Assembly: GCA_965277715.1 (NCBI GenBank)
Contig: OZ255836.1
Location: forward strand, 2,720,001-2,784,000
Length of the DNA stretch: 64,000 bases
Direction: 5' to 3'
Origin: Gammaproteobacteria bacterium
GTDB lineage: Bacteria; Pseudomonadota; Gammaproteobacteria; JBCCGL01
Below the pieces are notes generated by a model. That model ran no database searches. It was not told the DNA's origin and saw only the letters and a list, made by a program, of their open reading frames with translations. Shown here piece by piece: positions 3,987 through 63,001 of the stretch (its first letter is position 1; every line of letters begins with the position of its first letter). The translations under genes and the position numbers were made by a program.

Positions 3987-4052
3987 TAAGCCTCTCTGCC
4001 TCTATAAAGCTATCCGGGTCGGAGTGCGCGAACAAATAAAGGGTACTGACCC

Positions 4053-45572: not shown

Positions 45573-46037
45573 ATGTTACATATTGTTTTATATCAACCTG
45601 AAATCCCACCCAATACGGGCAATGTTATTCGCCTGTGTGCGAATACCGGTGCACAGTTACATCTAATTCGCCCCCTGGCCTTTGAAATGGACGATAAGCG
45701 CCTGCGTCGTGCAGGACTCGACTACCGGGAATGGGCAAACATACGCGAACACGACTCCATCGAGGCATTTTGCCGTGGTGTTGAGCATAATCGGCTATAC
45801 GCCTTTACCACCCACGCCACGCGTATCTATAGCGAGGTAAACTTCGCGCATAACGATGCATTCCTGTTTGGCCCTGAAACACGGGGATTGCCCAAAGACT
45901 ACCTGCAATCACTCCCCGACAAACAGCGCATACGACTACCAATGCGTGAAGGCTCGCGTAGTATGAATTTATCCAATAGCGTGGCGGTAGCCGTTTATGA
46001 AGCCTGGCGGCAATTGGATTTTTGTGGTGGAAAATAG
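45573..46037 (+). CDS. trmL: tRNA (cytidine/uridine-34 2'-O)-methyltransferase TrmL
   Basis: [36 protein letters not shown]. Confidence 0.95.
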
Positions 46038-46308
46038 CAGGAATATGCCATAGAACGGCTATGTAAATCAGCACAAATGCTGAGCTGCTTAAAGACCAAT
46101 GAACACTAGCTATGCTTAGGAACGTGCACGAAATAACTTCCGGGGTTTGCAAATGTATCGATTTACCTTATAGCTGAGTTGGCTGAGTGTGTCATTAACA
46201 CATAGCCTATTATTTAAATAACATTATAAGAGTGGACATTATTTTGTGTGTGTTCCATAACACCCTACGCTGCCCACATAGAAAAAGAGTAGACGTTAGC
46301 TCACCTTT

Positions 46309-46494
46309 TACTAACCTTTGTATTTATTCGTGGTGCTGTAGGGGGTTCGTTCGCGGGGCGCAGGTGTATTTATTTATGCTGTGCACAGCGAGCGAATTCC
46401 TTTTTACTAGCACACAGCAGAGAAAGACACTTACACTTCGCGAGCGAAACCCCAAACAGTAAAGTGCCTGCCCTTTTGAATAGTAGTGTTAAGT
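46309..46494 (-). other. Long imperfect hairpin with attC-like ends
   Basis: Minus strand begins ACTTAAC and ends GTTAGTA. Nested stems: GGGGGTTCGTTCGCG/CGCGAGCGAAACCCC, AGGTGT/ACACTT, TGCTGTG/CACAGCA. Confidence 0.4.
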
Positions 46495-46534
46495 ATGCTA
46501 TTTCAATATACAAACTGTGGCTGTCCGTGCAGTA

Positions 46535-46750
46535 CTACTCAAATTCAAATAATGCCTTTACTTCGACACTCAGCCCCCTCGCGATCTTTTCCAGGTTATC
46601 AAACTTAGGGCCAAATACACCTCGCTCAATATTACTAATCGATTCAACAGTCAAACCCGTGCTTTCGGCAAGCTGATCTTGCGTTAAACCCGCTTGTTTG
46701 CGAAGCACTTTAAGCTTAAGGCCAAACTGTGTTTTCAAGTTTGCTTGCAT
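46535..46750 (-). CDS. XRE-family HTH regulator
   Basis: FGLKLKVLRKQAGLTQDQLAE...ISNIERG; GGAGG RBS. Confidence 0.88.
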   Translation of the reverse strand: MQANLKTQFGLKLKVLRKQAGLTQDQLAESTGLTVESISNIERGVFGPKFDNLEKIARGLSVEVKALFEFE

Positions 46751-46800
46751 TCACGCCTCCAATATCGAGGCAAACAGAATATTGAAGTTGTACTTCCATA

Positions 46801-46823
46801 AAAACGAATTTAAATTTCGTTTT
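46801..46823. promoter_or_regulatory. Palindromic operator candidate between divergent genes
   Basis: AAAACGAA-N7-TTCGTTTT upstream of the XRE gene. Confidence 0.45.
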
Positions 46824-46846
46824 ATTGATATGAAATAAAAAACCAC

Positions 46847-47227
46847 TTGCTACACCTGAATTTAAGTCAACACCAACAGAATTTATTGAGCATCACTATG
46901 CAAAACCCCAGCCAAAAATCACACCTAACGACCAGAACAACAGCAGAGCCTGCACACGAAACACAAAACAGAATAATCATCGATCGCAAACAGGCCGGGC
47001 GGATTAACCCGCTAATTGACCGTAATGGCGCATCCGATACCTTATTCCGCTGTCGCTATATTCTGGCATTAATCACCGAATTAACAGGTGAGCAGCAAGC
47101 CTATGGCGAAGTACTCCAACTAGGCCATCGTTCAACAACGGGCCTGCACTACCTTTTGGAAATTTTAGATGCCGCACTGGAATATGAAGAATATGGGAGT
47201 ACAGGGCTGTCTGAGGTTCGTGAGTAG
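46847..47227 (+). CDS. Hypothetical protein divergent from the XRE regulator
   Basis: 126-aa ORF with an alternative ATG at 46898; no recognised domain. Confidence 0.5.
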   Translation: MLHLNLSQHQQNLLSITMQNPSQKSHLTTRTTAEPAHETQNRIIIDRKQAGRINPLIDRNGASDTLFRCRYILALITELTGEQQAYGEVLQLGHRSTTGLHYLLEILDAALEYEEYGSTGLSEVRE

Positions 47228-47405
47228 TTTTTGTTTTTTCTCAGCAATTGGATCAAGAGTCAGGCACAAATATTAAAAATGTGATTTAAAGAACTCCCGG
47301 AAAAACCACCCGCTCTGGATTAAGTTTCAAGCAAGCCATATAGCAAATAATATCGAGAACGCAATAATTAAATGTGTAAGATGATATTTGACCCCCTTCG
47401 TTTTT

Positions 47406-47697
47406 CCAGCGGCGGCCAATAGGCCAAGCTCGTAGCCAGAGGAGCTGGCGGTCTTGGTCTTGGTCATGGTCGCGGCGATGGGCTTTGCCGCCACCGAGGT
47501 CAGGGTTTTCGTCAGTAACAGCTCCACACAGGAGAACATAAAACAAAAGAATGCCGCCACGCCAATGCCCGAGTGGATGGTCAGCAAGAAGATTCGCAGG
47601 AAGAAGCGTGGAAATGAATAGCCGTCGATATACGCGGTTTCATCCAGCTCTTTGGGCACGCCGGACATAAACCCATCGAATATCCATACCGCCAGCA
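47406..47697 (-). pseudogene. Carbohydrate (glycerol-type) ABC permease internal fragment
   Basis: LAVWIFDGFMSGVPKELDETAYIDGYSFPRFF...FFCFMFS..ELLL...LLAAAG; GC-rich piece within AT-rich flanks. Boundaries approximate. Confidence 0.75.
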
Positions 47698-47889
47698 GTA
47701 AAAGTGCTTGTCCTTTTGAATATTTTTTTGGTGCCTGCTTTCTTGATTTGCGGTGCAACTTTCCCAAAGTATACTACAATTTTAAGTAGTAGGTTATTGG
47801 TTGGCAAAAAATCTAAACGATACCAATTAAAACTCCTACTACACCAAGCCAACTGTGCTTAATTACCTAACTAATTTTAGGGTTACCTT

Positions 47890-49044
47890 ATGCTACCAAA
47901 AAACAATATCGATATTACCTCGACTCAATACTTTCGCCCCACGTCATTATCAATTGAGTCACTCTTCTACGGTCTACAAGCGTTAAAAAATCCTCCCCCT
48001 CTTTTCAAGCAATTGGGGCTTGATCTGCATTATTTTGAGTTTTCTTCACCTGAAAGTGACAACAAAGACAGGAGGCCACAGGGTGTTACCAAGAAGGGGG
48101 ACTACATCATCAATAGCTGGTATTTTACAAATGATGCTACTTCAACCAATAAAGATAAGTGTAAATTAACAATCGCAGATACCAATACTAATGCCTATGT
48201 TAATGTTGTACCCGTTGAGCGTAATTCAGCAGGAAAATATGAGGGTATCACGTCTCATGCTGGAGGTATCACTATAGTGGGAGACTATTTATACATGGTG
48301 GATAAGATTGGCTCGGATAAGGGAATGAGAGTATTTTCCCTCAATAACATTCTCGAGGTAAACAAAAACACTCAGGATATTGCAACTGATGCCAGTAGCT
48401 TTATACTCGACTATAGTTATATGCTGCCAGAAGTGGGAGTGTTTACTGTCGATACACCGAGTAATGTTAATTTGAGTTATTTGTCTGTGGCGATGATTGA
48501 TAATACATCTTATTTCTTAACGGGTAATTTTTATAAAAGCGACGAATCTAAATACAACGCAGGGGGGAAATCTATGATGTGGCTATTTCCAATAAACACG
48601 AACGGGCCATCTTTTCCCTTTATCGATACAACTGCCAAGACTTATCAAATTGAACCGATGTATCCATCTGGTGAACATAAAAATAAGACAGTTTCTCGTA
48701 TTCAAGGAGCGACGATCACTGATAATGTTTTAATGATCAGCCGCTCTTGGGCTGATAAAAGTTATCAGTTGATTGGAATTGAATATAGTAGGGATATTCG
48801 TAAATTAGATGACTATAAGACTGATAAAATATCAGAATATTTTGATGGAACAGATACTTCACCTGAAAATAATAATGCTAAAAACTGGCTAGTAGGTTGT
48901 GAGAATCTACATCATGATAGGGAGACGGGTAATCTTTATACAGTAACAGAATTTAAGCCAGATTATAGATCGTCACCTGGAAGAAGAAATTATTATGTAG
49001 ACTATGATTCTGTAAAAGCGTTAATTAATCAACCGCCTTCCTAG
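47890..49044 (+). CDS. Low-GC hypothetical protein, possibly a beta-propeller
   Basis: 384 aa, beta-rich, with RPQGVT, HAGGI, IQGA and CENL motifs. Confidence 0.75.
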   Translation: MLPKNNIDITSTQYFRPTSLSIESLFYGLQALKNPPPLFKQLGLDLHYFEFSSPESDNKDRRPQGVTKKGDYIINSWYFTNDATSTNKDKCKLTIADTNTNAYVNVVPVERNSAGKYEGITSHAGGITIVGDYLYMVDKIGSDKGMRVFSLNNILEVNKNTQDIATDASSFILDYSYMLPEVGVFTVDTPSNVNLSYLSVAMIDNTSYFLTGNFYKSDESKYNAGGKSMMWLFPINTNGPSFPFIDTTAKTYQIEPMYPSGEHKNKTVSRIQGATITDNVLMISRSWADKSYQLIGIEYSRDIRKLDDYKTDKISEYFDGTDTSPENNNAKNWLVGCENLHHDRETGNLYTVTEFKPDYRSSPGRRNYYVDYDSVKALINQPPS

Positions 49045-49056
49045 GCAAATCGATAA

Positions 49057-49091
49057 AAATAAACGAGGCCATAATATGGCCTCGTTTATTT
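49057..49091. terminator. Intrinsic terminator-like hairpin
   Basis: AAATAAACGAGGCCAT-AAT-ATGGCCTCGTTTATTT, perfect 16-bp stem. Confidence 0.75.
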
Positions 49092-49149
49092 GATCCACGG
49101 GTGAGTGAGAAAAGAAAAAAGAAGGCAAGCATATTTTAAACGCCAGGTT

Positions 49150-49362
49150 ATTTTCATCAACACTTGATTCGTCAAAATACTCCTCTTCAGGTTTCCAACA
49201 ATTGTCGAGGTATTCCCATCGCCTTAATCCAAATGCTTCAGCAATTTTCCTGAGCCAGCGACCATCTATCTCTCGACACAGGTACATACATATCGAGCGT
49301 GTTAACGGCGTCTGCTGTTCGCCACGTTTGGCGTTTATTAAAACCTCTCTGATCAACTTCAT
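49150..49362 (-). pseudogene. C-terminal HTH remnant of a second RAYT-like transposase
   Basis: RSICMYLCREIDGRWLRKIAEAFGL aligns by eye with RKLAMYYCQRFGDMSLKAITQHFGL of 52177-53145. Boundaries approximate. Confidence 0.6.
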
Positions 49363-49422
49363 TTTCTTCGCTGTGCGTGTAATTAGAACGGTATTGGTAC
49401 CTCTACGGTAATAACTTGTCCA

Positions 49423-49637
49423 TTAAGCGCGCAAATAGTTATCAATAAACGCCTGCAAAGCCAGCTCAGCCCCCTTAGGTACATGCAAGCCTTTTTTACT
49501 GCGCCGCCACAGAATGTCATCCGCGCTGGATGCCCATTCGTGCTCGATCAGGTATTCCACTTCGCGTTGGTAGAGTGGCCCACCAAAATGCTGGCCCAGT
49601 TCCGCCATTGTGTTGGCATCGCCAATCAGTGTGTGAA
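49423..49637 (-). pseudogene. Glycerol-3-phosphate dehydrogenase (GlpD) C-terminal fragment
   Basis: LGQHFGGPLYQREVEYLIEHEWASSADDILWRRSKKGL. Confidence 0.82.
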
Positions 49638-49655
49638 GTGAAAGGGGTCATATAT

Positions 49656-51215
49656 CAATGGCACTAAGTTAAGCGGTTTTAGCGGGTAAAATAAACGAAA
49701 AAATAACTGTAATAAACCCAACAAAACAGGCTGAAATGTTATAATTTTGTATGAAAAATACAACCTTATTTCTACCCGGATTTAACATCCAAACACTCCG
49801 CAAAACACCCCGTTCAGCCATTCAAATCTTGCACGATAAGATAGCAAAAATACGTCACAAATCACTGAGTGAACTACCTGTTTTTCTTGGCGATATCATA
49901 CCCACGAATATTCTTAAACCGAATGATTGTGGTGTGAATAGTCGTCGACGTATTTTCAGTAAAGAAAATACTTTCTGGTTGTTTTTTTAACAAATAATAA
50001 ACGCCGATGGTGGCTGTAAAGAAGTCGTTAGACAACTGCAAAATGTCGCCCACAACCAAGGCATTCCCATACCTTCATCATCCACCTCCGCCTATTGCCA
50101 AGCACGTAAAAAACTACCCATGGACGATCTTAAAAACGTATTTTCAGGGACGTGTCGATTATCGACACCTCAACCCAAAGCGCTCCAAGGTCGACCGGTT
50201 ATCGTTGCCGATGGGACAGGCCTATCCATGCCCGATACGCCCGCGAATCAACAAACTTACCCACAACCAAAATCACAAACACAGGGATGCGGATTTCCTC
50301 AAGCACGGCTTTTAGCTTGTTTTAATCTTTATAGCGGTTTAATTCTGAGCTATGCACTAGGAAATAAAAAAAGTCATGAGCTAAGACTTTTAGAAGAACA
50401 ATGGGATACCTTCAATGAAGGTGACATTTTCTTAGGTGATAAAGGTTTTTGCAGCTTCTACGATATTGACTGCCTCTCTCGACGAACGGTTGACAGTGTC
50501 GTTACATTGGCGCGGAGAACGCCCAGCACTGCCTCCCAGGCCAAAAAGAAGATAGCCGATAATGACCTTCATATTGAATGGCAAAAACCTAAACACACAA
50601 AAGCGACCCGTTACACAAAAGAGCAGCATAGCGACCTTCCAAAGACCTTAACTTTACGACAAATACACGTCAGTATTGTACGAAAAGGATTTAGGACGAA
50701 CCATTTTTATATCATCACGACACTACTTGATGCTCAGCAATATCCCGCTATAGAAATTATCGACCTCTATGCACAGCGCTGGAATGTGGAACTGTATTTT
50801 CGCAATATTAAAACCACCATGGGTATGGATATATTACGCTGTAAAACACCTGATATGGTTCGTAAGGAAATCATCATGCACATGATTGTTTACAACACGA
50901 TCAGGCACATCATGTGTGTCGCTTCATACCGACATGACACACCGGTTGATCGGCTAAGTCTTAAAGGTGTTTTGCAAACACTCCGACAAAGCACTTCATC
51001 ACTTGGTAGTGGGCAGAGTCCAGCACAAAAAAGACGGCAATATCTTGATTATTTATATGCAGCGATTGCGGATGACCGTGTGCTTCATCGACCTTTTAGG
51101 TTTGAACCAAGAGTGGTAAAAAGGCGACCTAAACCACGGGCATTAATGACTCGACCAAGGAACGTTTTAAAAACTGAATATTGGCAAGCTAAAGCGGCTT
51201 AACTTAGTGCCATTG
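49656..51215 (+). mobile_element. IS4-family insertion sequence (IS-B)
   Basis: 19-bp TIR CAATGGCACTAAGTTAAGC; 11-bp direct repeat GGGTCATATAT (49645-49655 / 51216-51226). Confidence 0.93.
49751..51202 (+). pseudogene. IS4 transposase with a single in-frame stop
   Basis: ORFs 49751 and 50120 share a frame, interrupted by TAA at 49988-49990. Motifs VADGT, LGDKGF, YAQRWNVELYFRNIK. Confidence 0.88.
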
Positions 51216-51221
51216 GGGTCA

Positions 51222-52170
51222 TATATGGACCCGCAGTTAAATTCAACAATTTTTTAATCGTTCATTCATTTTTTTAGCGTTCAGAGCAGACACAGTAAAT
51301 AAGGTTAGCAGTCATATATCCGGCTTCTCGATAGGACGGATTGTATTTGTTTATCCGTCCAGAGCCATAATGGGAACCGTGCTCAGACACCTCATCAAGC
51401 AATCGGTCTGTGAAGACCATGACCCCCTCCAGGTTCTGTCTGAGCCGGTTTAACCTGTTATACCCTTTACTGCTCTTTCGCTACCTCGTGGTAAGAAATC
51501 TTCAACGACGTTATTAAACTGTTTTATGCACGTAAGTTGTATTATTAGCCGCTACCGCCCAGCTAATTCTGGCGAGCTTATTGGCCAATGCCACCGCCGC
51601 CACACAATGGCCCCGACGTGCTTTGACACGACAGGCCCAACGACTTAGCCCATCATCGTGTTTAGGCATTCGACTTAATGCCGCTTGCGCCCCCTGTATC
51701 AACAAAGTGCGCACGTGTTCGTCCCCGCGTTTACTGATACCTTTGAGTTGCGTTTTGCCCCCCGAACTATATTGACGAGGAATGAGACCCAAAAAGGCGG
51801 AAAACTCACGCCCGTTTTTATAAAAACCCGGATCGCCCATTGCTGTAAACAAGGCAGTGGCGACCAGAGGCCCTACACCCGGCAGTGTTTTTAATTGCTA
51901 GCAGCGCTCATGCTGGTTACTCAACTGGGTTAACCGTTTTGTGTAGTGTGTTACGCGTTTATCAATCTCCACTCGTTCATCATACAAAGCACTGAACACT
52001 TCACGTGCTGTGCTTGAAAAATATTTTTGGCTAGATCAATACCCAATCGGGTGATATTCTCGTTCATGGACTCGCTCCTACCTTTATTAGGTGATAATAG
52101 ATTGGTTGTGTTACCGCTCAATCTTGGCACATTGTGATGCCGATTCAAAGGGAGCGGGTCCATCCCATCA
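51222..52170 (-). mobile_element. IS1111-type (IS110 family) element, copy 1, internally deleted
   Basis: Sub-terminal IRs ATGGACCCGC (51225-51234 / 52154-52163). GIDLAK start, DEDD domain mostly deleted, premature TAG, and C-terminal PRQYSSGGK...ANKLAR. Confidence 0.9.
51225..51513 (-). ncRNA. Putative bridge/seek RNA region of IS1111 copy 1
   Basis: Near-identical reverse complement of 61197-61483. Confidence 0.65.
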
Positions 52171-52176
52171 GGCAAG

Positions 52177-53145
52177 TTATTTACTATTTAACTGATTTTC
52201 AATTTGATGCATCACCTCTTTAAGTTCTCCCTTGTCCAGCTCTTTCTTGACGTGAGCTATTGCACTCGACACACCACCAGGGTGACTTAACCCAAAATGT
52301 TGAGTAATCGCCTTTAACGACATATCACCAAACCGCTGGCAGTAATACATGGCCAATTTGCGGGGAGTGTTCGCGCTACCTCCCTTACCTTGACTATCCG
52401 AAATACTGCCTTCACTCACTCGGCAACAATTTGCCACCGTTTTTACTATCACACTGCTGGCTACCTTTTCCCGCAATTGGGGCCGCACATCAACGCCACT
52501 CTGGCTTTCTTTGTACTCGGCCAACTGTGAGCGGAACACCTTGTCACCTAACACCGTCGATAGGTTATTTTTGCCGTAAAAGCGCTGTATATCCTCATCA
52601 ATCCCTTGGTCTACATAGTCTGTGTAACATTGACAGTCGTTTTTCACCGGTAAACAGGCATAAACACGATCACGACACAACCAAGCAGGGTTCAATGCTC
52701 TTCCTATGTAAGCCGGGTAACTAGACCAGGGATAGTTCTTTAGCGATTGAACCAGAGGTCGTTTAGTCTCAATGGGGTTTCTATGTATATAGCGAGACAG
52801 GGGTAATAGATACGCATCTTCATCGACATTGATGGCTTTAAATCGCCCTCTAAACTGAGGGCCATCCGTTTTTTTAAGGCGGTTATAACGCTGTGTATAG
52901 ACACCATCGATATGCTGCATAATGCGACTGAGGTTAGCATCAGGTGTTTCCAGCAGTAGGTGGTAGTGATTGCCCATTAGGCAATAAGCGTGAATCACGG
53001 CGTGAAAACGCTCTGCGGCTTCGGTCAATGTGGCGAGAAACGCTTGGTAGTAAGCTTCGCTATGAAAAACCGTCTTACGCTCCCGACCACGGTTTATTAT
53101 ATGGTAGAAGGCGTTTTCATATTCTATGCGGTGAGGTCTTGGCAT
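52177..53145 (-). CDS. RAYT-like HUH/Y1 transposase with a C-terminal DnaA-like HTH
   Basis: FYHIINRG, CLMGNHYHLL (HUH), GRFK, RYIHRNP (catalytic Tyr), YPWSSY, and C-terminal RKLAMYY...SLKAITQHFG. Confidence 0.9.
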   Translation of the reverse strand: MPRPHRIEYENAFYHIINRGRERKTVFHSEAYYQAFLATLTEAAERFHAVIHAYCLMGNHYHLLLETPDANLSRIMQHIDGVYTQRYNRLKKTDGPQFRGRFKAINVDEDAYLLPLSRYIHRNPIETKRPLVQSLKNYPWSSYPAYIGRALNPAWLCRDRVYACLPVKNDCQCYTDYVDQGIDEDIQRFYGKNNLSTVLGDKVFRSQLAEYKESQSGVDVRPQLREKVASSVIVKTVANCCRVSEGSISDSQGKGGSANTPRKLAMYYCQRFGDMSLKAITQHFGLSHPGGVSSAIAHVKKELDKGELKEVMHQIENQLNSK

Positions 53146-53297
53146 GGGGTGATATTGACATAATCTATGATAAATAACTAGCCTGACCCCTTTTCCCTAT
53201 ATGGTAGAAGGCGTTTTCATATTCTATGCGGTGAGGTCTTGGCATGGGGTGATATTGACATAATCTATGATAAATAACTAGCCTGACCCCTTTTCCC
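53098..53297 (+). repeat. Exact 2 x 100-bp tandem duplication of the RAYT 5' end and terminal motif
   Basis: 53098-53197 equals 53198-53297; each unit ends AAATAACTAGCCTGACCCCTTTTCCC. Confidence 0.92.
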
Positions 53298-53329
53298 TTT
53301 TTCCCTTTCTTTCCTTATGTTTTTACAAT

Positions 53330-53354
53330 AGCCAGCCTTCTATGAAGGCTGGCT
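53330..53354 (-). terminator. Hairpin terminator after the adhesin gene
   Basis: AGCCAGCCTTC-TAT-GAAGGCTGGCT. Confidence 0.65.
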
Positions 53355-53377
53355 TTATACGCTTTTCTAGGATGAAA

Positions 53378-56300
53378 TCAAAACCACGCTTTTAGAACGT
53401 GTTTTTTACTGACGCGCGTCTTAATACAAGGAAAACGCAGCCACAACGACAGTAGTAACAGCGTTAATAGACCAGTCAGTTCGATAATAGTCATGGCGCC
53501 ACCACCACCACCGCCGCCGCTGCTGCTGCTAGTGTCACTACCACTACCAACATTTCCGGGGTCAGCTATTTGACCATTGGTGGCATTATCCGCATCGTTG
53601 GGGCCACCATCAGTAATCGTTAGGCGTAAGCAGTTATTGCCTACCACTAGATTTGACTGCCAGCTGGCATCATCATAATCCGGGCAAGTACTCGTACCTA
53701 TACTCATCGTCGATGCCAATGCATCAGTGGCACCATTGCTATTGACTGTGGTGGTATCAAAATTTACCCAGCCCGAACGACCAGAATTAGTCAGTGCTAT
53801 GGGTAAATATTTTCGATAAACCGGGTTTATCGGTAGGGGCACACTGAGTGGAATAACCACATTGACCTGTTGACCGGCTACCGGCAGATTGAGCACTTCA
53901 AAGTCCACAATATCGCCGACACGCGATACGGTATCAGCAGGAAGAATTTCAGACCCAGAAGCATTCTGTGCCTGTGGTGTCACTGCCGCATTAAAACCCG
54001 TCGCGGCGCTTGAATTCGTGACAGCCGAGGCAAAGGCAATATTACCCAGACGTAAACTGACACCTGGCTCAGAGGTCACAAAACGAGACTCAGCCGTATC
54101 AATAGGCAGCAACTGGCTATTGTTATCCAGACGTTCAAGAAAGTTGGGCACCCGGTCACCGTCATCATCAGCCAGGCCCTCTGCCATATCGTCTTCTCCA
54201 TCGTTATCCCGATCCGAGCTGTTAGTCAAACCAGGGTCAGCCAATACCCTAAGCTGCAACTGCGTGCGTACTGTGGCAACACTATCCGAGACAGATAAGA
54301 TAACCACGGCAATACCTGCCTGGGCCGGAGCCGTAGCCATAACCGATGGAGTGTTGGTGTTCGGTACAACAATACCTGTGGAGGCACTCCAGTCATAGGT
54401 CAGGGTGTCGCCATTGGTATCTGTGGCATTGGCGTTGATAGTAATGGTACTCCCTGCCACAACAGATGAAACTGCTTTACTGCTGTTATTGATTGTGGAC
54501 GTTACTGTTAGTTCTGTTTGTGGTGCAATATTGTCGCTGATAACATTAATAGTCTGGGTACTATTAGCTCCGGAGGTAACCCGTTCAATAACCGGGTTTA
54601 TATTGTTATCGTTTTGTACAAATACCGCAGCGCTATTGTTCACCTGCAAAGTAATACTGCCAGTATTGGCACCAATGGCCAGGTTGATACGACTGCTCAA
54701 CTGATTTGGCGCAAAGCTGAAAGTGCCAGTACTGCTTACGGTATTGGTTGAGTTGCCGGTACTATTGGCTGTTATCCTATAGGGCACTGTCAAGGTGGAA
54801 GTACGATCAACCGGGTTACCGTTGAGGGTCAGAACCACGCTCGCCGTACCATTGGTGGACGTCGTGATATTTTCCGAATTAAAGGATACTCTCGGTATCA
54901 CATTAATAACCTGGGTTGCACCACCACCTAATGGCCAGTTGCCATTACTGTCTACGGCTATCCACCACAATGAGTGGGCGCCCGCTAACAGTAACAGGTT
55001 ATTGTTATTATCACGTCGCACAGCTTGACAAGCGGATGCAAAATTAGCGGGTAGAACTGTGCCAGTACACCGACCCGTACGAAAATAGGCTGAGGCAGGC
55101 ACAGTCAGTGTCGCTGAGGTTGACCCATTACTGTTGCTGGCAGTAGCAGCTGGCACGGCCGTGAAAACCGCCGTCGATATGACATTAACCGGTGTACTCA
55201 GGCTAATCACTGGGCGACTGTCACCAACCGACACCGTACTGTGATTGGAGATAGCAGGGTTTAAACCAATGCCCACTTCGACGACATCGGGTATACCATT
55301 ATTATTGGTATCGGTAGTTTGAGTCACATCAGCGCCATTGCCAATAAAGGTTTCCACATCATCGCTAATACCATCGGCATCACTGTCTGTAGCGCTACTA
55401 TCTGCGCTTTGTAGACTATCCGCGAGGCCGTCATTATCGACATCTACTGCCGACAATGTTCTGAACGTCGTGCTTGTGTAGTTGCTGCGATTGTTCTGCG
55501 TATCTGCCACAACAACGCTAATAGTATGAGAGTGGCCTGGCACCAAGTCACTAAAAGTGGCGCTGGTCGCTGATACTGACAATGTTTGGATACTATTGGT
55601 TATGGTATCGGTTACCGTCACCGTATAAGTCACTGGATTGGCATCGGTCGCAGCGTTCCAATTGATAGCCACCCCATTGGGTGTCGCTGTCACTGTGAGC
55701 GTAGTATCTGCGGGTAAGACGGGCGCATCTCTATCTGCTGGGGCGATATTAACGGTGATGCTAGGGGTGGTGGTCAAGTTGCCGCCATTGCCATCATTGC
55801 CACTGATAGTAATACTTGTGGCGGTTGTATTGTTTAGCGCCGTTGTATAACTCACATTGGACGTGGTATCCAAAAAGGTATTGAGATTGGCTGGGCTACC
55901 GGCAAGGATCAAGCCAGCTGTTCCCGAACCGCTGACAGTCACACCACCTGAGGTGCCATTACCCGATGCGGCGGCTAAGGTGCCTGAGGCAGCCGTCAAG
56001 GTAATGGTTAGGGCATCGCCATCAATATCGGCAAAGGTAGTGGCAGATAAATTGATAGTCGTCGCTACATTTTCAATCACCATTACCGTTGCAGGCGTAC
56101 CGGTGATGGTGGGTGCATCATTCGCTGGAGTGATATTAACGGTGATGCCAGGGTTGGTGGTCAAGTCACCACTATTGCCATCATTGCCAGTGATAGTAAT
56201 GCTTGTGGCGGCTGTATTGTTTAGCGCCGTTGTATAGGCCACATTGGTGGTGGTATCTAAAAAAGTATTGAGATTGGCTGGGCTACCGGCAAGGATCAAG

Positions 56301-58219
56301 CCAGCTGTTCCCGAACCGCTGACAGTCACGCCTGCGGCGGTGCCATTGCCCGATGCGGTGGCTAAGGTGCCCGAAGCAGCCGTCAAGGTGATGGTCAGGG
56401 TATCGCCATCGACATCGGCAAAGGTACTGGCAGATAAATCGATATCAGTGGCTATATCTTCAGTCACCGTGACCATTGCGGGCGTACCGGTGATGGTGGG
56501 TGCATCATTCGCTGGAGTGATATTAACGGTGATGCCAGGGTTGGTGGTCAAGTTGCCGCCATTGCCATCATTGCCACTGATAGTAATACTTGTGGCGGTT
56601 GTATTGTTTAGCGCCGTTGTATAACTCACATTGGTGGTGGTATCTAAAAAAGTATTGAGATTGGCTGGGCTACCGGCAAGTACCAGAGCAGCTGTTCCCG
56701 AATCGCTGACAGTCACACCACCTGAGGTGCCATTACCCGATGCGGCGGCTAAGGTGCCTGAGGCAGCCGTCAAGGTGATGGTTAGGGCATCGCCATCAAT
56801 ATCGGCAAAGGTGCTGGTAGATAAATCGATACTAGTCGCTACATCTTCAGCCACCGTTACCGTTGCAGGCGTACCGGTGATGGTGGGTGCATCATTCGCT
56901 GGGGTGATATTAACGGTGATGCCAGGGTTGGTGGTCAAGTCACCACTATTGCCATCATTGCCAGTGATAGTAATGCTTGTGGCAGTTGTATTGTTTAGCG
57001 CCGTGGTATAGGTCACATTGGTGGTGGTATCTAAAAAAGTATTGAGGTTGGCTGGGCTACCGGCAAGGATCAAGCTAGCTGTTCCCGAACCGCTAGCAGT
57101 TACGCCGCCTGAGGTGCCATTGCCCGATGCGGTGGCTAAGGTGCCCGAAGCAGCCGTCAAGGTGATGGTTAGGGTATCGCCATCGACATCGGCAAAGGTG
57201 CTGGCAGATAAATCGACATCAGTGGCTACATCTTCAGTCACCGTTACCATTGCGGGCGTACCGGTGATGGTGGGTGCATCATTCACTGCGGTGATATTAA
57301 CGGTGATACCAGGGGTGGTAGTCAAGTTGCCACCATTACCATCACCACCACTGATAGTAATGCTTGTGGCGGTTGTATTGTTTAGCGCCGTTGTATAACT
57401 CACATTGGTGGTGGTATCTAAAAAAGTATTGAGATTGGCTGGGCTACCGGCAAGTACCAGAGCAGCTGTTCCCGAACCGCTGACAGTCACGCCTGCGGCG
57501 GTGCCATTACCTGATGCGGTGGCCAGAGTGCCTGAGGCAGCAGTCAGGGTCGCAGTTATAGTATTGTTTTCAGCATCAGCAAAAGTGCTGGCAGATAAGT
57601 CGATACTGGTGGCTACATCTTCAGTCACCGTTACCGACGCAGGCACACTCGTTATGGTTGGCGGCGTATTAGATACAAGCGCCCTGATATCGGATATGGT
57701 AAAACCGCTTAATACAGCGTTAACACTATCATTCGATCCCTGGAATGAGAGCGAAACCGAGAATTGGGTGATATTATCAAATCTACCTGCTGTAGTATCC
57801 AGGCTGACTACGTTTGACAATGAACTCGAACCGACCATAAAGGTTTCTTGTGCACCATTACTGGCATTAATCACAACATTCATGGTACGTGTACTTCCAA
57901 AATCGAAGGCCCGAATCTGATCCAGGTCAAACGTCGCAAGATCAGTATTATCTGCGGTAAATGTCCAAGTGTGCTCACTTATGCTGATATTAGTCTCTCT
58001 TGCCAAGCCATTAACAAAACCCGAGTTAGTCGAGCTGAAAGCTGCCATATCTCCTACTGACGTAAGACCAATGGTAAACCCGTCGTTCGTATTGCCGTTC
58101 GTGTTATTGGAATAGTAGGCTGCATCAGTATTGTGAACAGTGGGTATGGTGGCAAACGCACTGGTGCTCAAACTTGCCAAGAGCACACTAAAGGTAAGGA
58201 AACAGGGTTTTTTATACAT
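53378..58219 (-). CDS. Large repetitive surface protein/adhesin with a GlyGly-CTERM anchor
   Basis: Signal peptide; five 129-aa cadherin/Ig-like repeats (NDAPTI...FADxDGD); FN3-like domain; DxDxDG Ca-binding motifs; choice-of-anchor-U-like TITDGGPNDAD; GGGGGGG plus TM helix and basic tail. Confidence 0.87.
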   Translation of the reverse strand: MYKKPCFLTFSVLLASLSTSAFATIPTVHNTDAAYYSNNTNGNTNDGFTIGLTSVGDMAAFSSTNSGFVNGLARETNISISEHTWTFTADNTDLATFDLDQIRAFDFGSTRTMNVVINASNGAQETFMVGSSSLSNVVSLDTTAGRFDNITQFSVSLSFQGSNDSVNAVLSGFTISDIRALVSNTPPTITSVPASVTVTEDVATSIDLSASTFADAENNTITATLTAASGTLATASGNGTAAGVTVSGSGTAALVLAGSPANLNTFLDTTTNVSYTTALNNTTATSITISGGDGNGGNLTTTPGITVNITAVNDAPTITGTPAMVTVTEDVATDVDLSASTFADVDGDTLTITLTAASGTLATASGNGTSGGVTASGSGTASLILAGSPANLNTFLDTTTNVTYTTALNNTTATSITITGNDGNSGDLTTNPGITVNITPANDAPTITGTPATVTVAEDVATSIDLSTSTFADIDGDALTITLTAASGTLAAASGNGTSGGVTVSDSGTAALVLAGSPANLNTFLDTTTNVSYTTALNNTTATSITISGNDGNGGNLTTNPGITVNITPANDAPTITGTPAMVTVTEDIATDIDLSASTFADVDGDTLTITLTAASGTLATASGNGTAAGVTVSGSGTAGLILAGSPANLNTFLDTTTNVAYTTALNNTAATSITITGNDGNSGDLTTNPGITVNITPANDAPTITGTPATVMVIENVATTINLSATTFADIDGDALTITLTAASGTLAAASGNGTSGGVTVSGSGTAGLILAGSPANLNTFLDTTSNVSYTTALNNTTATSITISGNDGNGGNLTTTPSITVNIAPADRDAPVLPADTTLTVTATPNGVAINWNAATDANPVTYTVTVTDTITNSIQTLSVSATSATFSDLVPGHSHTISVVVADTQNNRSNYTSTTFRTLSAVDVDNDGLADSLQSADSSATDSDADGISDDVETFIGNGADVTQTTDTNNNGIPDVVEVGIGLNPAISNHSTVSVGDSRPVISLSTPVNVISTAVFTAVPAATASNSNGSTSATLTVPASAYFRTGRCTGTVLPANFASACQAVRRDNNNNLLLLAGAHSLWWIAVDSNGNWPLGGGATQVINVIPRVSFNSENITTSTNGTASVVLTLNGNPVDRTSTLTVPYRITANSTGNSTNTVSSTGTFSFAPNQLSSRINLAIGANTGSITLQVNNSAAVFVQNDNNINPVIERVTSGANSTQTINVISDNIAPQTELTVTSTINNSSKAVSSVVAGSTITINANATDTNGDTLTYDWSASTGIVVPNTNTPSVMATAPAQAGIAVVILSVSDSVATVRTQLQLRVLADPGLTNSSDRDNDGEDDMAEGLADDDGDRVPNFLERLDNNSQLLPIDTAESRFVTSEPGVSLRLGNIAFASAVTNSSAATGFNAAVTPQAQNASGSEILPADTVSRVGDIVDFEVLNLPVAGQQVNVVIPLSVPLPINPVYRKYLPIALTNSGRSGWVNFDTTTVNSNGATDALASTMSIGTSTCPDYDDASWQSNLVVGNNCLRLTITDGGPNDADNATNGQIADPGNVGSGSDTSSSSGGGGGGGAMTIIELTGLLTLLLLSLWLRFPCIKTRVSKKHVLKAWF
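55745..57670 (-). repeat. Five tandem 387-bp intragenic repeats
   Basis: Equivalent positions at 55857, 56244, 56631, 57018 and 57405 (period 387). Array ends approximate. Confidence 0.9.
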
Positions 58220-58339
58220 AGAGTCTGGCTCGTAATAGTTTTTTAAAATCGTTAAGGTCGCAGCAAGCTAGACTAGTTTTTCGATAATGTAAACTTAAAT
58301 AATGCTTTTTATGAAAGATGAATGAAAGGGGTCAGGCAA

Positions 58340-59905
58340 GAATGGCACTTCCTTAAGCTCTAAGTACATGAAAAATATGGAAGTATTTTCATTGTAAATG
58401 ACCTATTTCTGTTTTTTGGGATGGCCATATTTTTTAACAACACTTCTGGCCACGTTCCTTGGCTGCATCAATAAAGGATATGGTTTGGGTCTTCGTTTAA
58501 CCACTCTTGGTTCAATACGCCCCGGTCGATTACCCACACAGTTTTCTGCAATCAACGCACATAGCGCCAACACCTTATCACTACCCAGAGGGCTACTGCC
58601 TTTCTGATAACGATACGCTACCCAAATTTGTAACGTATGCTTAAAACTTATCTGTCGAGGCAGTATGTCCACTAGTAAGGCAGATTGCGCCATTAATAAG
58701 CGAATAAGGTTGTAAGCTAATATGTGTACCCACATTTCCTTCTCAACCATTTCTGGCGTCTTACAACGGAAGGTGTGCATCTTCATTGTCGTTTTTATAT
58801 GGCGTAAATCAAGTTCGACATGCCAGCGTTCTTTGTAGAGCTGTTTAAGCGCCTCTTTAGACGCCGATTTAACTGATAACAACGTTGTCACCAACAGTTT
58901 TTTACCCACTTTCAGTTCACGTATAACCACTTCATCAGCAGCCGCTTCATAGGCTTCTTCGCTCATCCACTCTGGTCTCTTCTTGGGCTTTGTATAACAA
59001 ATCAGGTGATCCTTCGATCCAAGCCTTTTGCCTTCTCGAAAATCTGTGGATTTACGCCGCGCACCATGCGGCTCAAATACACCGTCTACTCCTTGCTCTA
59101 TAAGGTTTGCTAGAAAAAAATAACCCGCAAAATAGGCATCACCCACCACAATATCACCCGGTTTAAGCGCATTTTGTATTTTTCTCAATAACGTTTGCTC
59201 ATCCGCTCCCTTACCTTTAAAAGGACCCATTGCCGCATCGAGAACACCACCACTGGCTAAACAAATAATTCCTACCCAGCGACAAAGAGGAAAACCGATC
59301 CCCACTTGCTGGCCTGACTGTTGCGGATAAACTACCTGATTTTCAGGCGTATCGGGCATTGTCACAGTGGTGCCGTCAACCAATTTAACTGAACGCCCTT
59401 GCCAGTGCCAGTGACTGGCCGCTTCATTCGCCACACACTCGCCTGTACAACGGGCAAGCCCTGAGACGAGGGGGGTTGGCAGCCTTTGTCGCGCTTTACA
59501 ATAACTCCCTGTATACGTATTACTCACTGATAAACCTTCACTTAATCGCTGTACAGCGAGTGTGTTGACAGCTTGTTGGCAGGACTGATCTGCACTCATT
59601 GTTTGGTATAAAAACAGCGATAAGGTGTCTAGAGGAGGATAGCGACGCGCTCGAAAATCCGGTTGTAATTCTTCCAGTTTCGTAAGTAACTGAGAGGATG
59701 TCAGCAAGTGATAAAAACTCAATGCATCCGAGGATTGAGCTCGGCTTTTGATGCGACGTTGAAGAATGTTGACTTTTACATTACTCTGCATGATGGCTGG
59801 TTCCTGTGGGATAAAGGGTATTTGTGTTGGCAATAAATAACCTACCATAGAACCAGCTTTTTTTGTAATTACTTCAAATACTTACAGCTTAAGGAAGTGC
59901 CATTC
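58340..59905 (-). mobile_element. IS4-family insertion sequence (IS-C)
   Basis: 19-bp TIR GAATGGCACTTCCTTAAGC at both ends; the flanks are not direct repeats. Confidence 0.92.
58403..59791 (-). CDS. IS4-family DDE transposase, apparently intact
   Basis: LVDGT, VGDAYF, YKERWHVELDLRHIK; start at 59791 or 59848. Confidence 0.92.
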   Translation of the reverse strand: MQSNVKVNILQRRIKSRAQSSDALSFYHLLTSSQLLTKLEELQPDFRARRYPPLDTLSLFLYQTMSADQSCQQAVNTLAVQRLSEGLSVSNTYTGSYCKARQRLPTPLVSGLARCTGECVANEAASHWHWQGRSVKLVDGTTVTMPDTPENQVVYPQQSGQQVGIGFPLCRWVGIICLASGGVLDAAMGPFKGKGADEQTLLRKIQNALKPGDIVVGDAYFAGYFFLANLIEQGVDGVFEPHGARRKSTDFREGKRLGSKDHLICYTKPKKRPEWMSEEAYEAAADEVVIRELKVGKKLLVTTLLSVKSASKEALKQLYKERWHVELDLRHIKTTMKMHTFRCKTPEMVEKEMWVHILAYNLIRLLMAQSALLVDILPRQISFKHTLQIWVAYRYQKGSSPLGSDKVLALCALIAENCVGNRPGRIEPRVVKRRPKPYPLLMQPRNVARSVVKKYGHPKKQK

Positions 59906-59916
59906 TAGCCTGACCC

Positions 59917-60124
59917 GAATGGCACTTCCTTAAGCTGTAAGTATTTGAAAGTATTGGTACTACATGCTTGGTTCAGATAACTTGGCATATGGTTCTTGAA
60001 AGCAATATTTGTAAAACTATCCCGGTTATCATTGGCGGCAACTTTCAAAATATCATTTTTTTTCTTAGAAATAATAAATAAACTCTTTACTATCAGTTGC
60101 TTACGTCTTAAGGAAGTGCCATTC
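59917..60124. mobile_element. 208-bp MITE-like derivative of IS-C
   Basis: Both ends read GAATGGCACTTCCTTAAG inward; no transposase. Confidence 0.82.
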
Positions 60125-60312
60125 GGGTCAATGCAGTTATTTCCTATACTTCTTGCTGGAAATCACTGTTTTTATCCGTATTAGTCGTTGTATGGTGAAT
60201 AATAAGCCTGATGGGATGGACCCGCTCCCTTTGAATCGGCATCACAATGTGCCAAGATTGAGCGGTAACACAACCAATCTATTATCACCTAATAAAAGGT
60301 AGGAGCGAGTCC

Positions 60313-61196
60313 ATGAACGAGAATATCACCCGATTGGGTATTGATCTAGCCAAAACTATTTTTCAAGTGTGTGGTGCTAATAAACACGGTAAAGTGGTGT
60401 TTAATAAAAAAACTTAAACGCGATCAGCTACCGTCTTATATCGCCAATGTACCGGCCTGTGAGGTGGTGATGGAAGCGTGTGCGACGTCCAGTTATTGGT
60501 CGCAGGTTTTCACACGCTACGGCCATACAGTCAAACTCATTAACCCAGCCTATGTACGCCCTTACGTTAAAACAAAGAAGAACGATGCAGCGGATGCAGA
60601 GGCGCTGTGTGAAGCAGCCTCACGTCCGAGTATGCGATTTGTTCAGCCCAAAACACCCGACCAACAAGACAGCCAATTACTCCACCGGGTGCGCAGTCGG
60701 CTAGTGTCAAAACGGACGAGTTTAAGTAATCAGATAAGAGGGTTACTGGGTGAGTATGGGCTGATTATTCCGGTGGGTATTCACCACGTTCACCAGCACT
60801 TGCCTGCGCTTTTAGAGGATGCTGAAAACGGGTGTAGGGCCTCTGGTCGCCACTGCTTTGTTTGTAGCAATGGGTGATCCGGGTTTTTATAAAAATGGGC
60901 GTGAGTTTTCCGCCTTTTTGGGTCTCGTTCCTCGTCAATATAGTTCGGGGGGCAAAACACAACTCAAAGGTATCAGTAAACGCGGAGACGAACACGTGCG
61001 CACTTTGTTGATACAGGGGGCGCAAGCGGCATTAAGTCGAATGCCTAAACACGATGATGGGCTAAGTCGTTGGGCCTGTCGTGTCAAAGCACGTCGGGGC
61101 CATTGTATGGCGGCGGTGGCATTGGCCAATAAGCTCGCCAGAATTAGCTGGGCGGTAGCGGCTAATAATACAACTTACGTGCATAAAACGGCTTAA
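60313..61196 (+). pseudogene. IS110 recombinase pseudogene
   Basis: MNENITRLGIDLAK start; frameshift in an A-run near 60405-60412; VMEAC and KNDAADAEA motifs; out-of-frame deletion near 60830; then GVGP...SSGGK...ANKLAR. Confidence 0.88.
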
Positions 61197-61483
61197 TAAC
61201 GTCGTTGAAGATTTCTTACCACGAGGTAGCGAAAGAGCAGTAAAGGGTATAACAGGTTAAACCGGCTCAGACAGAACCTGGAGGGGTCATGGTCTTCACA
61301 GACCGATTGCTTGATGAGGTGTCTGAGCACGGTTCCCATTATGGCTCTGGACGGATAAACAAATACGATCCGTCCTATCGAGAAGCCGGATATATGACTG
61401 CTAACCTTATTTACTGTGTCTGCTCTGAACGCTAAAAAATGAATAAACGATTAAAAAATTGTTGAATTTAACTGCGGGTCCAT
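61197..61483 (+). ncRNA. Putative bridge/seek RNA region of IS1111 copy 2
   Basis: Two stem-closed internal loops matching the target (GGGGTCA 61283-61289; TTGCTTGA 61307-61314) and the donor junction (TCCCATTAT 61334-61342; ATATATGA 61390-61397). Confidence 0.7.
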
Positions 61484-61608
61484 ATATGACCCCTTTTCTT
61501 TTCTTTCCCTTTTCCTTTCCAGATTAAAATACCCTCGATACTATTTTTTATTTCCAGAATTTTTTAGTGCCTTTATATAATGCCTGTCCTTAATCATTTC
61601 TTTTAGAC

Positions 61609-62805
61609 CTATTTTTTACTCTTGAACTCACCGTCAGACGAAGTTTTGACCTGCCCAGCGACTATTACCTCAATATCTCCATTGTCACCGGATGAACCAT
61701 CATTGCCTGACGATCCAGAGTTTCCTGGTGAGCCGTTAGACCCGACTCTTCCCGCTGACTTGCAAGGTCCACTAAGTGCTCCCTCAGCGCCTCCAGTTCC
61801 TTCATTACCGCCTGAACCACCCTTCCCATGAGAACCAGGCAAACCACCTTTTGTCACAATGGTTACCGAGCCTGATATTGATTGGGCTTCAACAAATGCT
61901 GGCCCACCATTACCGCCATTTCCTGCATTTCCACCTGCGCCTCCATCTCCTCCGTTTCCACCGTCGCCACCTTTTTTAGGGCCTTCTTGACAATCACCGA
62001 CATAGCCGATACTAATTCCTGCCAAAGACGGTTGTCCCTGACCACCATTTCCCCCATTACCACCTTTGCCTCCTCGGCCACCATTTCCGCCATTTTGGCC
62101 TCTGTTAGATATGATAATGTTTGCCGAGATATCGTTGGCAACTATCTTCACCTTTCCAGCCGATTGCCCCGATTGGCCCGAAGTACCATTATTTCCGTTT
62201 TCACCATTGCTCCCATCTTGGCCTGAGCCACCATTGCCATGCCTACCTTTCCTTCCATCTTCTACATTACCACCGTTTCCTGCTCGGCCCGGGGAATACG
62301 ACCTAATTTGTGCGCTGCCACCAATCAAGTTGTTCACTTTTAGTGAAACATCGAACCCGTTGGTAATCACTTCGCCTGTAAATTCATAATCAGAGGCGGG
62401 GTCGTTAACAATAAGTGGCGCATCAAGAGAAATGGCTGAAATGGTTTTAATCGGGGCCTTTACGATAATTAATTGTTTTTTTTGTATTGACTTGCTTCCG
62501 TCGCTAGCTATGACTTTTATTTCAAACTGACCAGGGACAGGAAAACTGAAATCGTATGTATTTAGGTCGCCTTCTGTTTGAAGTTCATTGTCCAGATACC
62601 AAGAGATTTTTATTTCGTCATTATCAGGATCAAAGGCGTTTGCATTTGCTACCACCCTCAGTGGTGCATCTCCTTTTGTCGCGCTTAACTCTATGCTTAA
62701 CTGTGGTGGCTCGTTGATGAGGCCTCGAATAATATCTGGCGCCAACCCAATCAATGCAGCAAGTACTCCGCCTCCGATTAATACACCGATGATGATTTTC
62801 TTCAT
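61609..62805 (-). CDS. Membrane-anchored PKD-domain protein with a collagen-like Gly-X-Y region
   Basis: N-terminal TM, GDAPLRV...DPDND...SW PKD-like domain, and long GxxGxxG runs. Confidence 0.8.
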   Translation of the reverse strand: MKKIIIGVLIGGGVLAALIGLAPDIIRGLINEPPQLSIELSATKGDAPLRVVANANAFDPDNDEIKISWYLDNELQTEGDLNTYDFSFPVPGQFEIKVIASDGSKSIQKKQLIIVKAPIKTISAISLDAPLIVNDPASDYEFTGEVITNGFDVSLKVNNLIGGSAQIRSYSPGRAGNGGNVEDGRKGRHGNGGSGQDGSNGENGNNGTSGQSGQSAGKVKIVANDISANIIISNRGQNGGNGGRGGKGGNGGNGGQGQPSLAGISIGYVGDCQEGPKKGGDGGNGGDGGAGGNAGNGGNGGPAFVEAQSISGSVTIVTKGGLPGSHGKGGSGGNEGTGGAEGALSGPCKSAGRVGSNGSPGNSGSSGNDGSSGDNGDIEVIVAGQVKTSSDGEFKSKK

Positions 62806-62814
62806 GATGTGCCC

Positions 62815-62985
62815 TTATTTCGACATGTCTTTTTGAGGATTTCTTCTTGTAACAATATTGCTTTGCCTATGACTTTTGCATCTCTCTTTAGGGCGGCCCC
62901 CAACTTTGCCTCTTTGTAAATCAACAGTAGAACAGCCGGAAGCCCCGGAGACTGCGACAGCAATAATTCCATACTTAATTTTCAT
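62815..62985 (-). CDS. Small putative lipoprotein (56 aa), possibly a remnant
   Basis: Below the ORF cutoff. GGAGGA RBS followed by MKIKYGIIAVAVSGASGCST; stops 9 bp before the PKD gene. Confidence 0.4.
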   Translation of the reverse strand: MKIKYGIIAVAVSGASGCSTVDLQRGKVGGRPKERCKSHRQSNIVTRRNPQKDMSK

Positions 62986-63001
62986 CTATATCCTCCGATC
63001 A

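Follow-up and report, generated by a model that had tools for sequence, protein, structure and literature searches.

A TIRtron with insertion sequences in copies of its end repeat in a gammaproteobacterial genome

Introduction

In 2013, Di Nocera, De Gregorio, and Rocco described TIRtrons, in which a gene resembling those of the REP (repetitive extragenic palindrome)-associated tyrosine transposases (RAYTs) is flanked by inverted repeats; in the passages of that paper available to us, the ends follow the consensus GGGGWSAS and also occur as dimers and clusters (BMC Genomics 14:522, PMC3733652). According to the corresponding passages of Quentin, Siguier, Chandler, and Fichant (2018, BMC Genomics 19:475, PMC6006769), most of the encoded proteins, TIRYTs, fall into subclass 2.1 of TnpA_REP, carry Bac_DnaA_C or helix-turn-helix (HTH) tails, and have no REPs near their genes, and the end motif is unlike a DnaA box. 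In a full-text search, TIRYT was named by these two papers only. Here, we describe such an element in a 64,000-nt stretch of DNA (the window) from a Gammaproteobacteria bacterium (GCA_965277715.1, contig OZ255836.1, positions 2,720,001 to 2,784,000 of the forward strand). All coordinates are window positions, with position 1 being its first letter. The element is a TIRtron of the kind already described in 2013, encoding a TIRYT, and is not a new kind.

We consider it probable that the locus is an insertion sequence (IS)-like element of ∼1.03 kb, in which the TIRYT gene stands alone between two 22-bp terminal inverted repeats (TIRs), and that the neighboring genes are bystanders rather than captured cassettes. 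An earlier analysis made from the letters alone (the sequence-only reading) had taken the same locus for an integron-like platform for gene capture or shuffling.

Results

The TIRYT gene lies between two inverted 22-bp ends

The sequence-only reading had noticed inverted motifs on both sides of the Y1 gene once the ISs are taken out, and this arrangement was confirmed. The end repeat occurs as an exact 22-mer twice in the window (53172-53193 and 53272-53293, both on the minus strand) and not at all in shuffled sequences. Between the first of these copies and the ATG at 53145 lie 26 nt. Its inverted counterpart at the other end of the gene, read directly with the ISs removed, consists of 49641-49650 (AAAGGGGTCA) joined to 52171-52181 (GGCAAGTTATT) and includes the stop codon, TAA, at 52177-52179; the 2,520 bases that split it are two nested ISs, IS4-like "a" and IS110-like copy 1, the latter sitting 6 nt beyond the stop. 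The core of the end, GGGGTCA, occupies the outer edge of the 22-bp repeats, and the GGGTCA of the 5′ end starts 44 nt before the ATG. Each full end copy contains GGGGTCAG, which fits GGGGWSAS. All five occurrences of the 9-mer AAGGGGTCA in the window fall within 49642 to 61487; the first 47 kb has none.

The window's end repeat showed no hairpin, the end alone folding at 0 kcal/mol, and no GTAG tag or palindrome, consistent with the earlier statement that these ends are neither GTAG-plus-hairpin REPs nor the hairpin ends of IS200/IS605 elements. The upstream end region yielded no sigma-70-like promoter.

The protein joins a RAYT-like domain to a DnaA-type domain

A RAYT-like Y1/HUH enzyme with an additional DnaA-type HTH, as proposed from the letters, was recovered by profile, sequence, and fold comparisons alike. 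Pfam detected Y1_Tnp (E = 1.4e-13) and Bac_DnaA_C (E = 3.1e-7; 30.8 bits, slightly below the cut-off of 31.5). The best NCBIfam match was the RAYT model REP_Tyr_transpos (NF047646; E = 4.5e-17), which scored 62.3 bits against a cut-off of 80, and the IS200 model NF033573 scored 25.7 bits against a cut-off of 55. DnaA domain IV chains, with weak E values, were the sole matches in a sequence search of PDB. The HUH motif corresponds to H60-Y61-H62 and the catalytic tyrosine to Tyr119; in 32 sequences, Y61, H62, and Y119 were invariant and H60 nearly so. In an AlphaFold model built from 32 sequences (predicted local distance difference test score, 79.9), the N-terminal domain resembled the Escherichia coli RAYT-REP complex 4er8_A, the best structural match (E = 2.8e-6; template modeling [TM] score on the target, 0.67), and the C-terminal domain resembled DnaA domain IV (3pvp_B, TM 0.75; 1j1v_A, TM 0.70, both on the target).

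These properties agree with the TIRtron as far as the available passages of the 2013 description go: a RAYT-like Y1 gene with TIRs instead of REPs, an upstream end at a set distance, a 3′ end that overlaps the gene, and extra ends in dimers or clusters. Set against the same passages, the window differs in having site-specific IS insertions in both end-bearing units and a 100-bp end duplication that includes the gene start, and in that the element appears to be repeated in the organism. Judged by domain make-up only, the protein would belong to TnpA_REP subclass 2.1 (subgroup 2.1.2), with which, in the passages available, it shares its length, a C-terminal Bac_DnaA_C-like HTH, and the lack of REP-like sequences near the gene.

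The classical RAYTs with their REPs and REPINs (E. coli TnpA_REP, PDB 4ER8) share the N-terminal fold and the inverted repeats flanking the gene, and REPINs resemble the empty inverted doublets that fold as hairpins in homologues of the TIRYT (see below). However, the protein stays below the RAYT model cut-off, has ∼180 extra residues with the HTH, and is flanked by ends that carry neither GTAG tag nor hairpin; repeats in two homologue genomes number in the tens, not hundreds. The IS200/IS605 transposases (TnpA of IS608 and ISDra2) likewise share the HUH/Y1 fold and the lack of target duplication, but the ends of their elements are distinct, noninverted subterminal hairpins, whereas the ends here are inverted repeats, and the IS200 model score is below its cut-off.

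Conserved ends bracket the transposase gene across the family

The TIRYT belongs to a large family: a word-filtered search in which 8,000 candidates were scored returned 7,364 proteins at E ≤ 0.001, and nearly all of the best 120 contained both domains. To survey the ends, 80 loci of up to 20 kb each were fetched from reference genomes via the Y1 protein alone; 63 were evaluable, the other 17 being left out because of a truncated gene or too short a distance to a contig end. In 61 of the 63 loci, GGGTCA stood no more than 150 nt upstream of the ATG, compared to 46 of 1,260 control windows taken from the same loci; 50 of these 61 had it starting 42 to 53 nt before the ATG. TGACCC was found at or near the stop codon in 48 of 63 loci, with three position classes covering 40 of the 48, and both ends were found in 46 of 63. 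The examination of homologue flanks for a conserved motif, which the sequence-only reading had named as a check, therefore came out in favor of the motif. Within a locus, the ends usually form inverted repeats of 20 to 30 nt, and 44 of 46 end pairs showed no target duplication, the same as in shuffles. By eye, end subtype co-varied with protein similarity; since ends and gene are inherited together, this was not used.

What the ends enclose bears directly on capture. In 46 of the 63 loci, the nearest end pair brackets the ∼1-kb transposase gene alone; other pairs lie ∼1 kb apart or enclose 50 to 110 bp of nothing, and no end-bounded gene cassette was seen in the homologue loci. The earlier claims that outward-facing pairs enclose cargo and that the whole is an integron-like capture or shuffling platform are thus not borne out, because end pairs in relatives enclose the transposase only or nothing.

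Ends also occur away from the gene. Genome G001 gave 29 end hits against 0 in the control, spread beyond the gene locus. Genome G002 gave 16 against 0, comprising three pairs ∼1 kb apart (three TIRtrons, all matching one 19-nt end pattern without mismatch) along with solo copies and a single doublet of 111 bp; a span of 11 kb, amid unrelated accessory genes, holds most of them (two TIRtrons, the doublet, and solo ends). Empty doublets in homologues fold as long single-stranded DNA (ssDNA) hairpins (z = −8 to −18). At least two ends of the same orientation stood on at least one side of the gene in 22 of 61 loci, and such arrays often include duplicates of a 5′ or 3′ gene end, with periods of about 100 to 110 nt. 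In one locus (L016, 9900-11480), arrays with duplicated 5′ and 3′ gene ends had periods of 102 to 110 nt, to which we liken the exact 100-bp duplication of the window. Such arrays may be the footprint of the enzyme acting at its own ends; we found no description of them in the available passages of Di Nocera et al. (2013) and Quentin et al. (2018). An exact scan of metagenome contigs for a 20-nt end pattern gave no match.

The survey also bears on whether the gene moves at all. It could be a domesticated, immobile RAYT-like gene whose inverted motifs are operator sites bound by the HTH for autoregulation, with extra copies arising by local duplication. The fixed upstream spacing would suit such a role, as would 50 to 60% protein identity across distant taxa and the fact that most loci carry only two flanking copies; several RAYT groups are described as housekeeping-like in the part of Bertels et al. 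(2017) available to us. However, the inverted second copy is conserved at the stop codon, where no promoter needs one, and the window's own end repeat lacks a sigma-70-like promoter. The uniform ends of the three TIRtrons in G002, the dispersed doublets and solo copies in both genomes, and several contigs with different flanks in the organism itself (see below) also speak for mobility, and we regard domestication as unlikely.

The remaining end copies in the window are assigned to four origins

The sequence-only reading had listed further motif copies at 53284, 58328, 59911, 60125, 60201/61487, and 47389. We assign the copies beyond TIRtron-1 to four origins: a tandem end duplication of 100 bp, the probable remains of a second TIRtron beside the adhesin gene, a nonautonomous empty doublet, and one weak solo site. 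All features are collected in Table 1.

The exact copy at 53272-53293, corresponding to 53284 of that list, is real but is not independent, because it belongs to the second unit of the duplication (Tandem Repeats Finder [TRF]: 53098-53298, period 100, 2.0 copies, 100%). The copies at 58328 and 59911 are partial. At 60125-60142 stands a diverged end variant, GGGTCAATGCAGTTATTT, which forms the left side of the doublet; the right side (60190-60211 plus 61490-61500) is interrupted by IS110-like copy 2. An inward pair around an empty unit of about 90 bp, as stated earlier, is therefore real after removal of this IS, with a corrected size of ∼98 bp. The doublet shares 13-nt and 16-nt matches with the TIRtron-1 ends, extending beyond the core, and a paralogous, uninterrupted doublet copy was found as a loose end in sequencing runs X6 and X8.

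The site at 47389 consists of GGGGGTCA plus a few bases and, by sequence alone, does not stand above chance: GGGGTCA has 23 occurrences in the window, and GGGGTCAGGC at up to one mismatch gave 7 matches against 3.7 expected. GGGGTCA copies at 4047, 5587, and 5601 were considered as members of the end-repeat family and rejected, as they belong to the ends or flank of another IS-like unit. That unit (∼4053-5580) has inverted ends of ∼19 bp (CCCAATACCGCTACCTCAG...), a long open reading frame (ORF), and repeated end-like pieces past its right end. A decayed third TIRtron at 49095-49402 was likewise dropped; tblastn gave 36% identity to the TIRYT tail over 36 aa (E = 0.03), and DNA matches to TIRtron-1 were at most 10 nt long (E ≥ 0.3). 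A 113-aa ORF at 49021-49362 (minus strand) encodes an HTH resembling DnaA_C (Pfam E = 3.7e-5, under the cut-off); its sequence would suit either what is left of another TIRYT or an HTH gene with no relation to it.

Table 1. Features of the TIRtron locus and its surroundings (window coordinates;., no strand)
Feature	Coordinates	Strand	Basis
Weak solo end-like site (GAAGGGGGTCA)	47389-47400	−	Motif scan; IS110-like copy inserted exactly there in X1
Outer half of 3′ TIR of TIRtron-1 (GAAAGGGGTCA)	49640-49650	+	AAGGGGTCA match at 49642; resumes at 52171 without the IS block
IS4-like "a", 1,560 bp, transposase frame broken	49656-51215	+	DDE_Tnp_1 E = 3.9e-26; inverted ends 49656-49695 and 51215-51188
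IS110-like copy 1, internal deletions, frame broken, in 3′ end between GGGGTCA and GGC	51222-52170	−	Transposase_20 E = 2.8e-16; ends identical to copy 2
Inner half of 3′ end (GGCAAGTTATTT...), holds transposase stop codon	52171-52192	+	Sequence reading; TAA 52177-52179
TIRYT gene, 322 aa, Y1/HUH plus DnaA-domain-IV-like HTH (∼residues 225-320), frame intact	52177-53145	−	Pfam; conserved columns; model
5′ TIR of TIRtron-1	53172-53193	−	Exact 22-mer
Second unit of exact 100-bp tandem duplication (end repeat, leader, first 48 nt of gene), holds copy 53272-53293	53198-53297	−	TRF; tblastn fragment 53245-53183
Cadherin-like/fn3 repeat surface protein (adhesin), 1,613 aa, between TIRtron-1 and next end repeat	53378-58219	−	Cadherin_4 E = 2.1e-12; fn3
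Outer 16 nt of 3′-type end (GAAAGGGGTCAGGCAA), cut by IS4-like "b"	58324-58339	+	Sequence; X1 and X3 continue into TIRYT 3′-end sequence
IS4-like "b" (IS4b), 1,566 bp, 481-aa transposase	58340-59905	−	DDE_Tnp_1 E = 1.5e-19; ends
11-nt piece of 5′-type end (reverse complement GGGTCAGGCTA), between IS4b and MITE	59906-59916	−	Sequence matches
Miniature inverted-repeat transposable element (MITE), 208 bp, with IS4b-type ends	59917-60124	.	33 nt and 18 nt identical to IS4b ends, unrelated interior
Empty end-repeat doublet: variant left end 60125-60142, spacer, inner right end to IS110 insertion point	60125-60211	+	Sequence; X6, X8
IS110-like copy 2, 1,278 bp, frame broken, same end-repeat position as copy 1	60212-61489	+	DEDD_Tnp_IS110 E = 6.7e-14; copy alignment
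Outer part of doublet right end (CCCCTTTT...)	61490-61500	−	Sequence matches

IS110-like and IS4-like elements insert at the ends

The IS110-like element targets one site in the end repeat, the junction of TCA and GGC: copies 1 and 2 have TCA/TGA on both sides and occupy the identical position in two different end copies. A further copy at 47389 was seen in run X1 (joint 47388 to 60209), with 29 letters on the shorter side, less than the 30 letters below which we treat a joint with caution. The 3′ noncoding region of the IS110-like element (61197-61486, 290 nt) folds strongly (z = −5.4) and contains GGAGGGGTCATGG, which resembles the target, and ATATATGAC, which resembles the element's own end. 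Going by the IS110/IS1111 families, we take this to be what a guide (bridge) RNA would look like. In such an RNA, loops could pair with AAAGGGGTCAGGC and with the element's own ends. An Rfam scan of 46000-64000 returned no named RNA, only below-threshold hairpin matches at abutting IS ends.

IS4-like "a" is flanked by an 11-bp target duplication, GGGTCATATAT, at 49645-49655 and 51216-51226. All 11-mers adjoining IS4-type ends (these two, 58329-58339, 59906-59916, and 60125-60135) begin with GGGTCA in end-repeat orientation; because of this, the sequence suggests a preference of these IS4-like elements for inserting into the end repeat. No matching direct repeats accompany IS4b or the MITE, an outcome expected if IS copies recombined. 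In one X6 contig, the right end of IS4b (59905) is joined directly to the MITE-type left end (59917) without the intervening 11 nt; the contig may represent either a form with abutted ends or a further copy in the genome.

The proximity of ends and ISs admits the converse explanation, in which the motif belongs to the ISs, as their target or a carried flank, and came to bracket the gene as a side effect of IS traffic. Five of the eight listed motif copies do adjoin an IS110-like or IS4-type end, and the IS110-like noncoding region holds a stretch like the motif. However, loci retrieved with the Y1 protein alone contradict this explanation, since that core recurs with unchanged spacing in 61 of 63 of them, and the 5′ end repeat at 53172-53193 adjoins no IS; we give it next to no credence.

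The surroundings look like an IS-rich variable region with gene fragments. Across 46000-64000, G+C content falls from 0.52-0.60 to 0.39-0.50, and at least five IS-type units are present together with a further DDE transposase ORF (63002-63976).

Contigs from sequencing runs suggest repeated copies of the element

We compared the window with contigs from sponge-metagenome runs of two studies and from runs of organism A that carry this stretch; runs X4 and X5, with a small share, were left out, and missing cover (for example, of 47803-49004 and 61626-62827 in X1 and X3) was not counted as absence. In X1 and X3, contigs join 58259 to 52168 with AATGAAAGGGG between, running through the end into TIRYT 3′-end sequence. 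These joints support the presence of a second TIRtron beside the right side of the adhesin gene, which is probably represented in the window by its remains, its interior having probably been deleted by recombination between IS copies. A variant letter at 53095 was found in 3 contigs of X1, 7 of X3, 5 of X6, and 1 of X8. In X1, three contigs connect to 52168 from the left, with a consensus that ends in GAAAGGGG and has low agreement farther upstream. Summed depth over the TIRYT gene was ∼5 to 10 times that of single-copy neighbors, depth not being the same as copy number.

The adhesin gene contains a 387-bp repeat (4.9 copies, 88% identity). Both this gene and the glp/orphan segment simply occupy the space between neighboring copies of a repeated element and are read here as bystanders. 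The alternative is that end pairs of neighboring units delimit cargo, which the Y1 enzyme excises, captures, or shuffles in the manner of an integron or a composite transposon. Strain breakpoints do fall within ∼10 bp of end copies, as the sequence-only reading would have them, and X1 and X3 lack cover of 47803-49004; given the contigs that run from the upstream region of the adhesin gene through an end into the TIRYT 3′ end, the adhesin may lie between two TIRtrons of the same orientation, and G002 clusters its elements among accessory genes. However, these breakpoints also carry IS110-like and IS4-like insertions and fall within repeated DNA, in which homologous recombination would look no different, so that the strain comparison does not discriminate, and missing contig cover is not absence. 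The window holds no same-orientation cassette array and no attC-like unit, and in the family the end pair is fixed around the transposase. Together, these data leave a cargo role for the ends quite improbable.

Discussion

The evidence from the gene, its ends, and its family supports a TIRtron whose TIRYT gene stands alone between its TIRs. From fold, family, and anatomy, the TIRYT would recognize its own ends and, by analogy with RAYTs and the TnpA of IS200/IS605, would use Tyr119 and the HUH metal site to cut a single DNA strand. The two inverted ends could pair in ssDNA to form a double-stranded stem, which the HTH may bind; the element would move without target duplication, and doublets would be mobilized in trans.

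Several points weigh against this reading. Neither transposition nor cleavage nor binding is reported for any TIRYT in the literature found by full-text search. The window's end has no hairpin, and a small perfect palindrome (stem of at least 5 bp) is present in only 25 of 61 family ends; because so few ends have stems, a RAYT-like hairpin mechanism is not general unless the ends pair mutually. The homologue loci, most of which show only two flanking ends within 20 kb or less, would also fit an immobile, domesticated gene. In the organism, copy number rests on run contigs, and summed depth is not a copy number. The three 11-mers flanking IS4b and the MITE differ among themselves, with one inverted, and the IS4b-mediated deletion is itself something we infer. 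Finally, an X1 contig joins 49403-49635 (a glpD C-terminal fragment) via 1,671 unknown letters to 47409-47696 (a permease fragment), in the reverse of the window's order and with both breakpoints at end copies. X6 shows the same joint with only 30 letters on one side, and this run seems to hold both arrangements. Only because of this joint do we keep the cargo idea in consideration; ISs and repeated DNA lie at these places as well.

A more far-reaching possibility, which we consider very unlikely, is that the TIRtron is an active, repeated transposon in an IS-rich, sponge-associated bacterium, its ends serving as genome-wide landing pads for IS4-like elements and for an RNA-guided IS110-like element, and that neighboring ends move or permute the DNA between them. 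If so, the adhesin would lie between two same-orientation TIRtrons, and the glpD and ugpE fragments would stand in two orders with breakpoints at end repeats; a Y1-HTH enzyme would then drive segment shuffling, which comes near what the sequence-only reading had proposed.

That inverted motifs bracket the gene is a genuine feature, one that far exceeds chance and holds across the family; it reveals no new kind of gene-capture system. The TIRYT family is very large and, going by the literature search, biochemically uncharacterized. The window provides a case in which a TIRtron looks repeated and recently active, with an empty doublet and end duplications, and whose ends have been hit repeatedly by site-specific ISs, making the genome of this organism a good natural data set. 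The 22-bp end offers a concrete substrate for the first biochemical work on TIRYTs.

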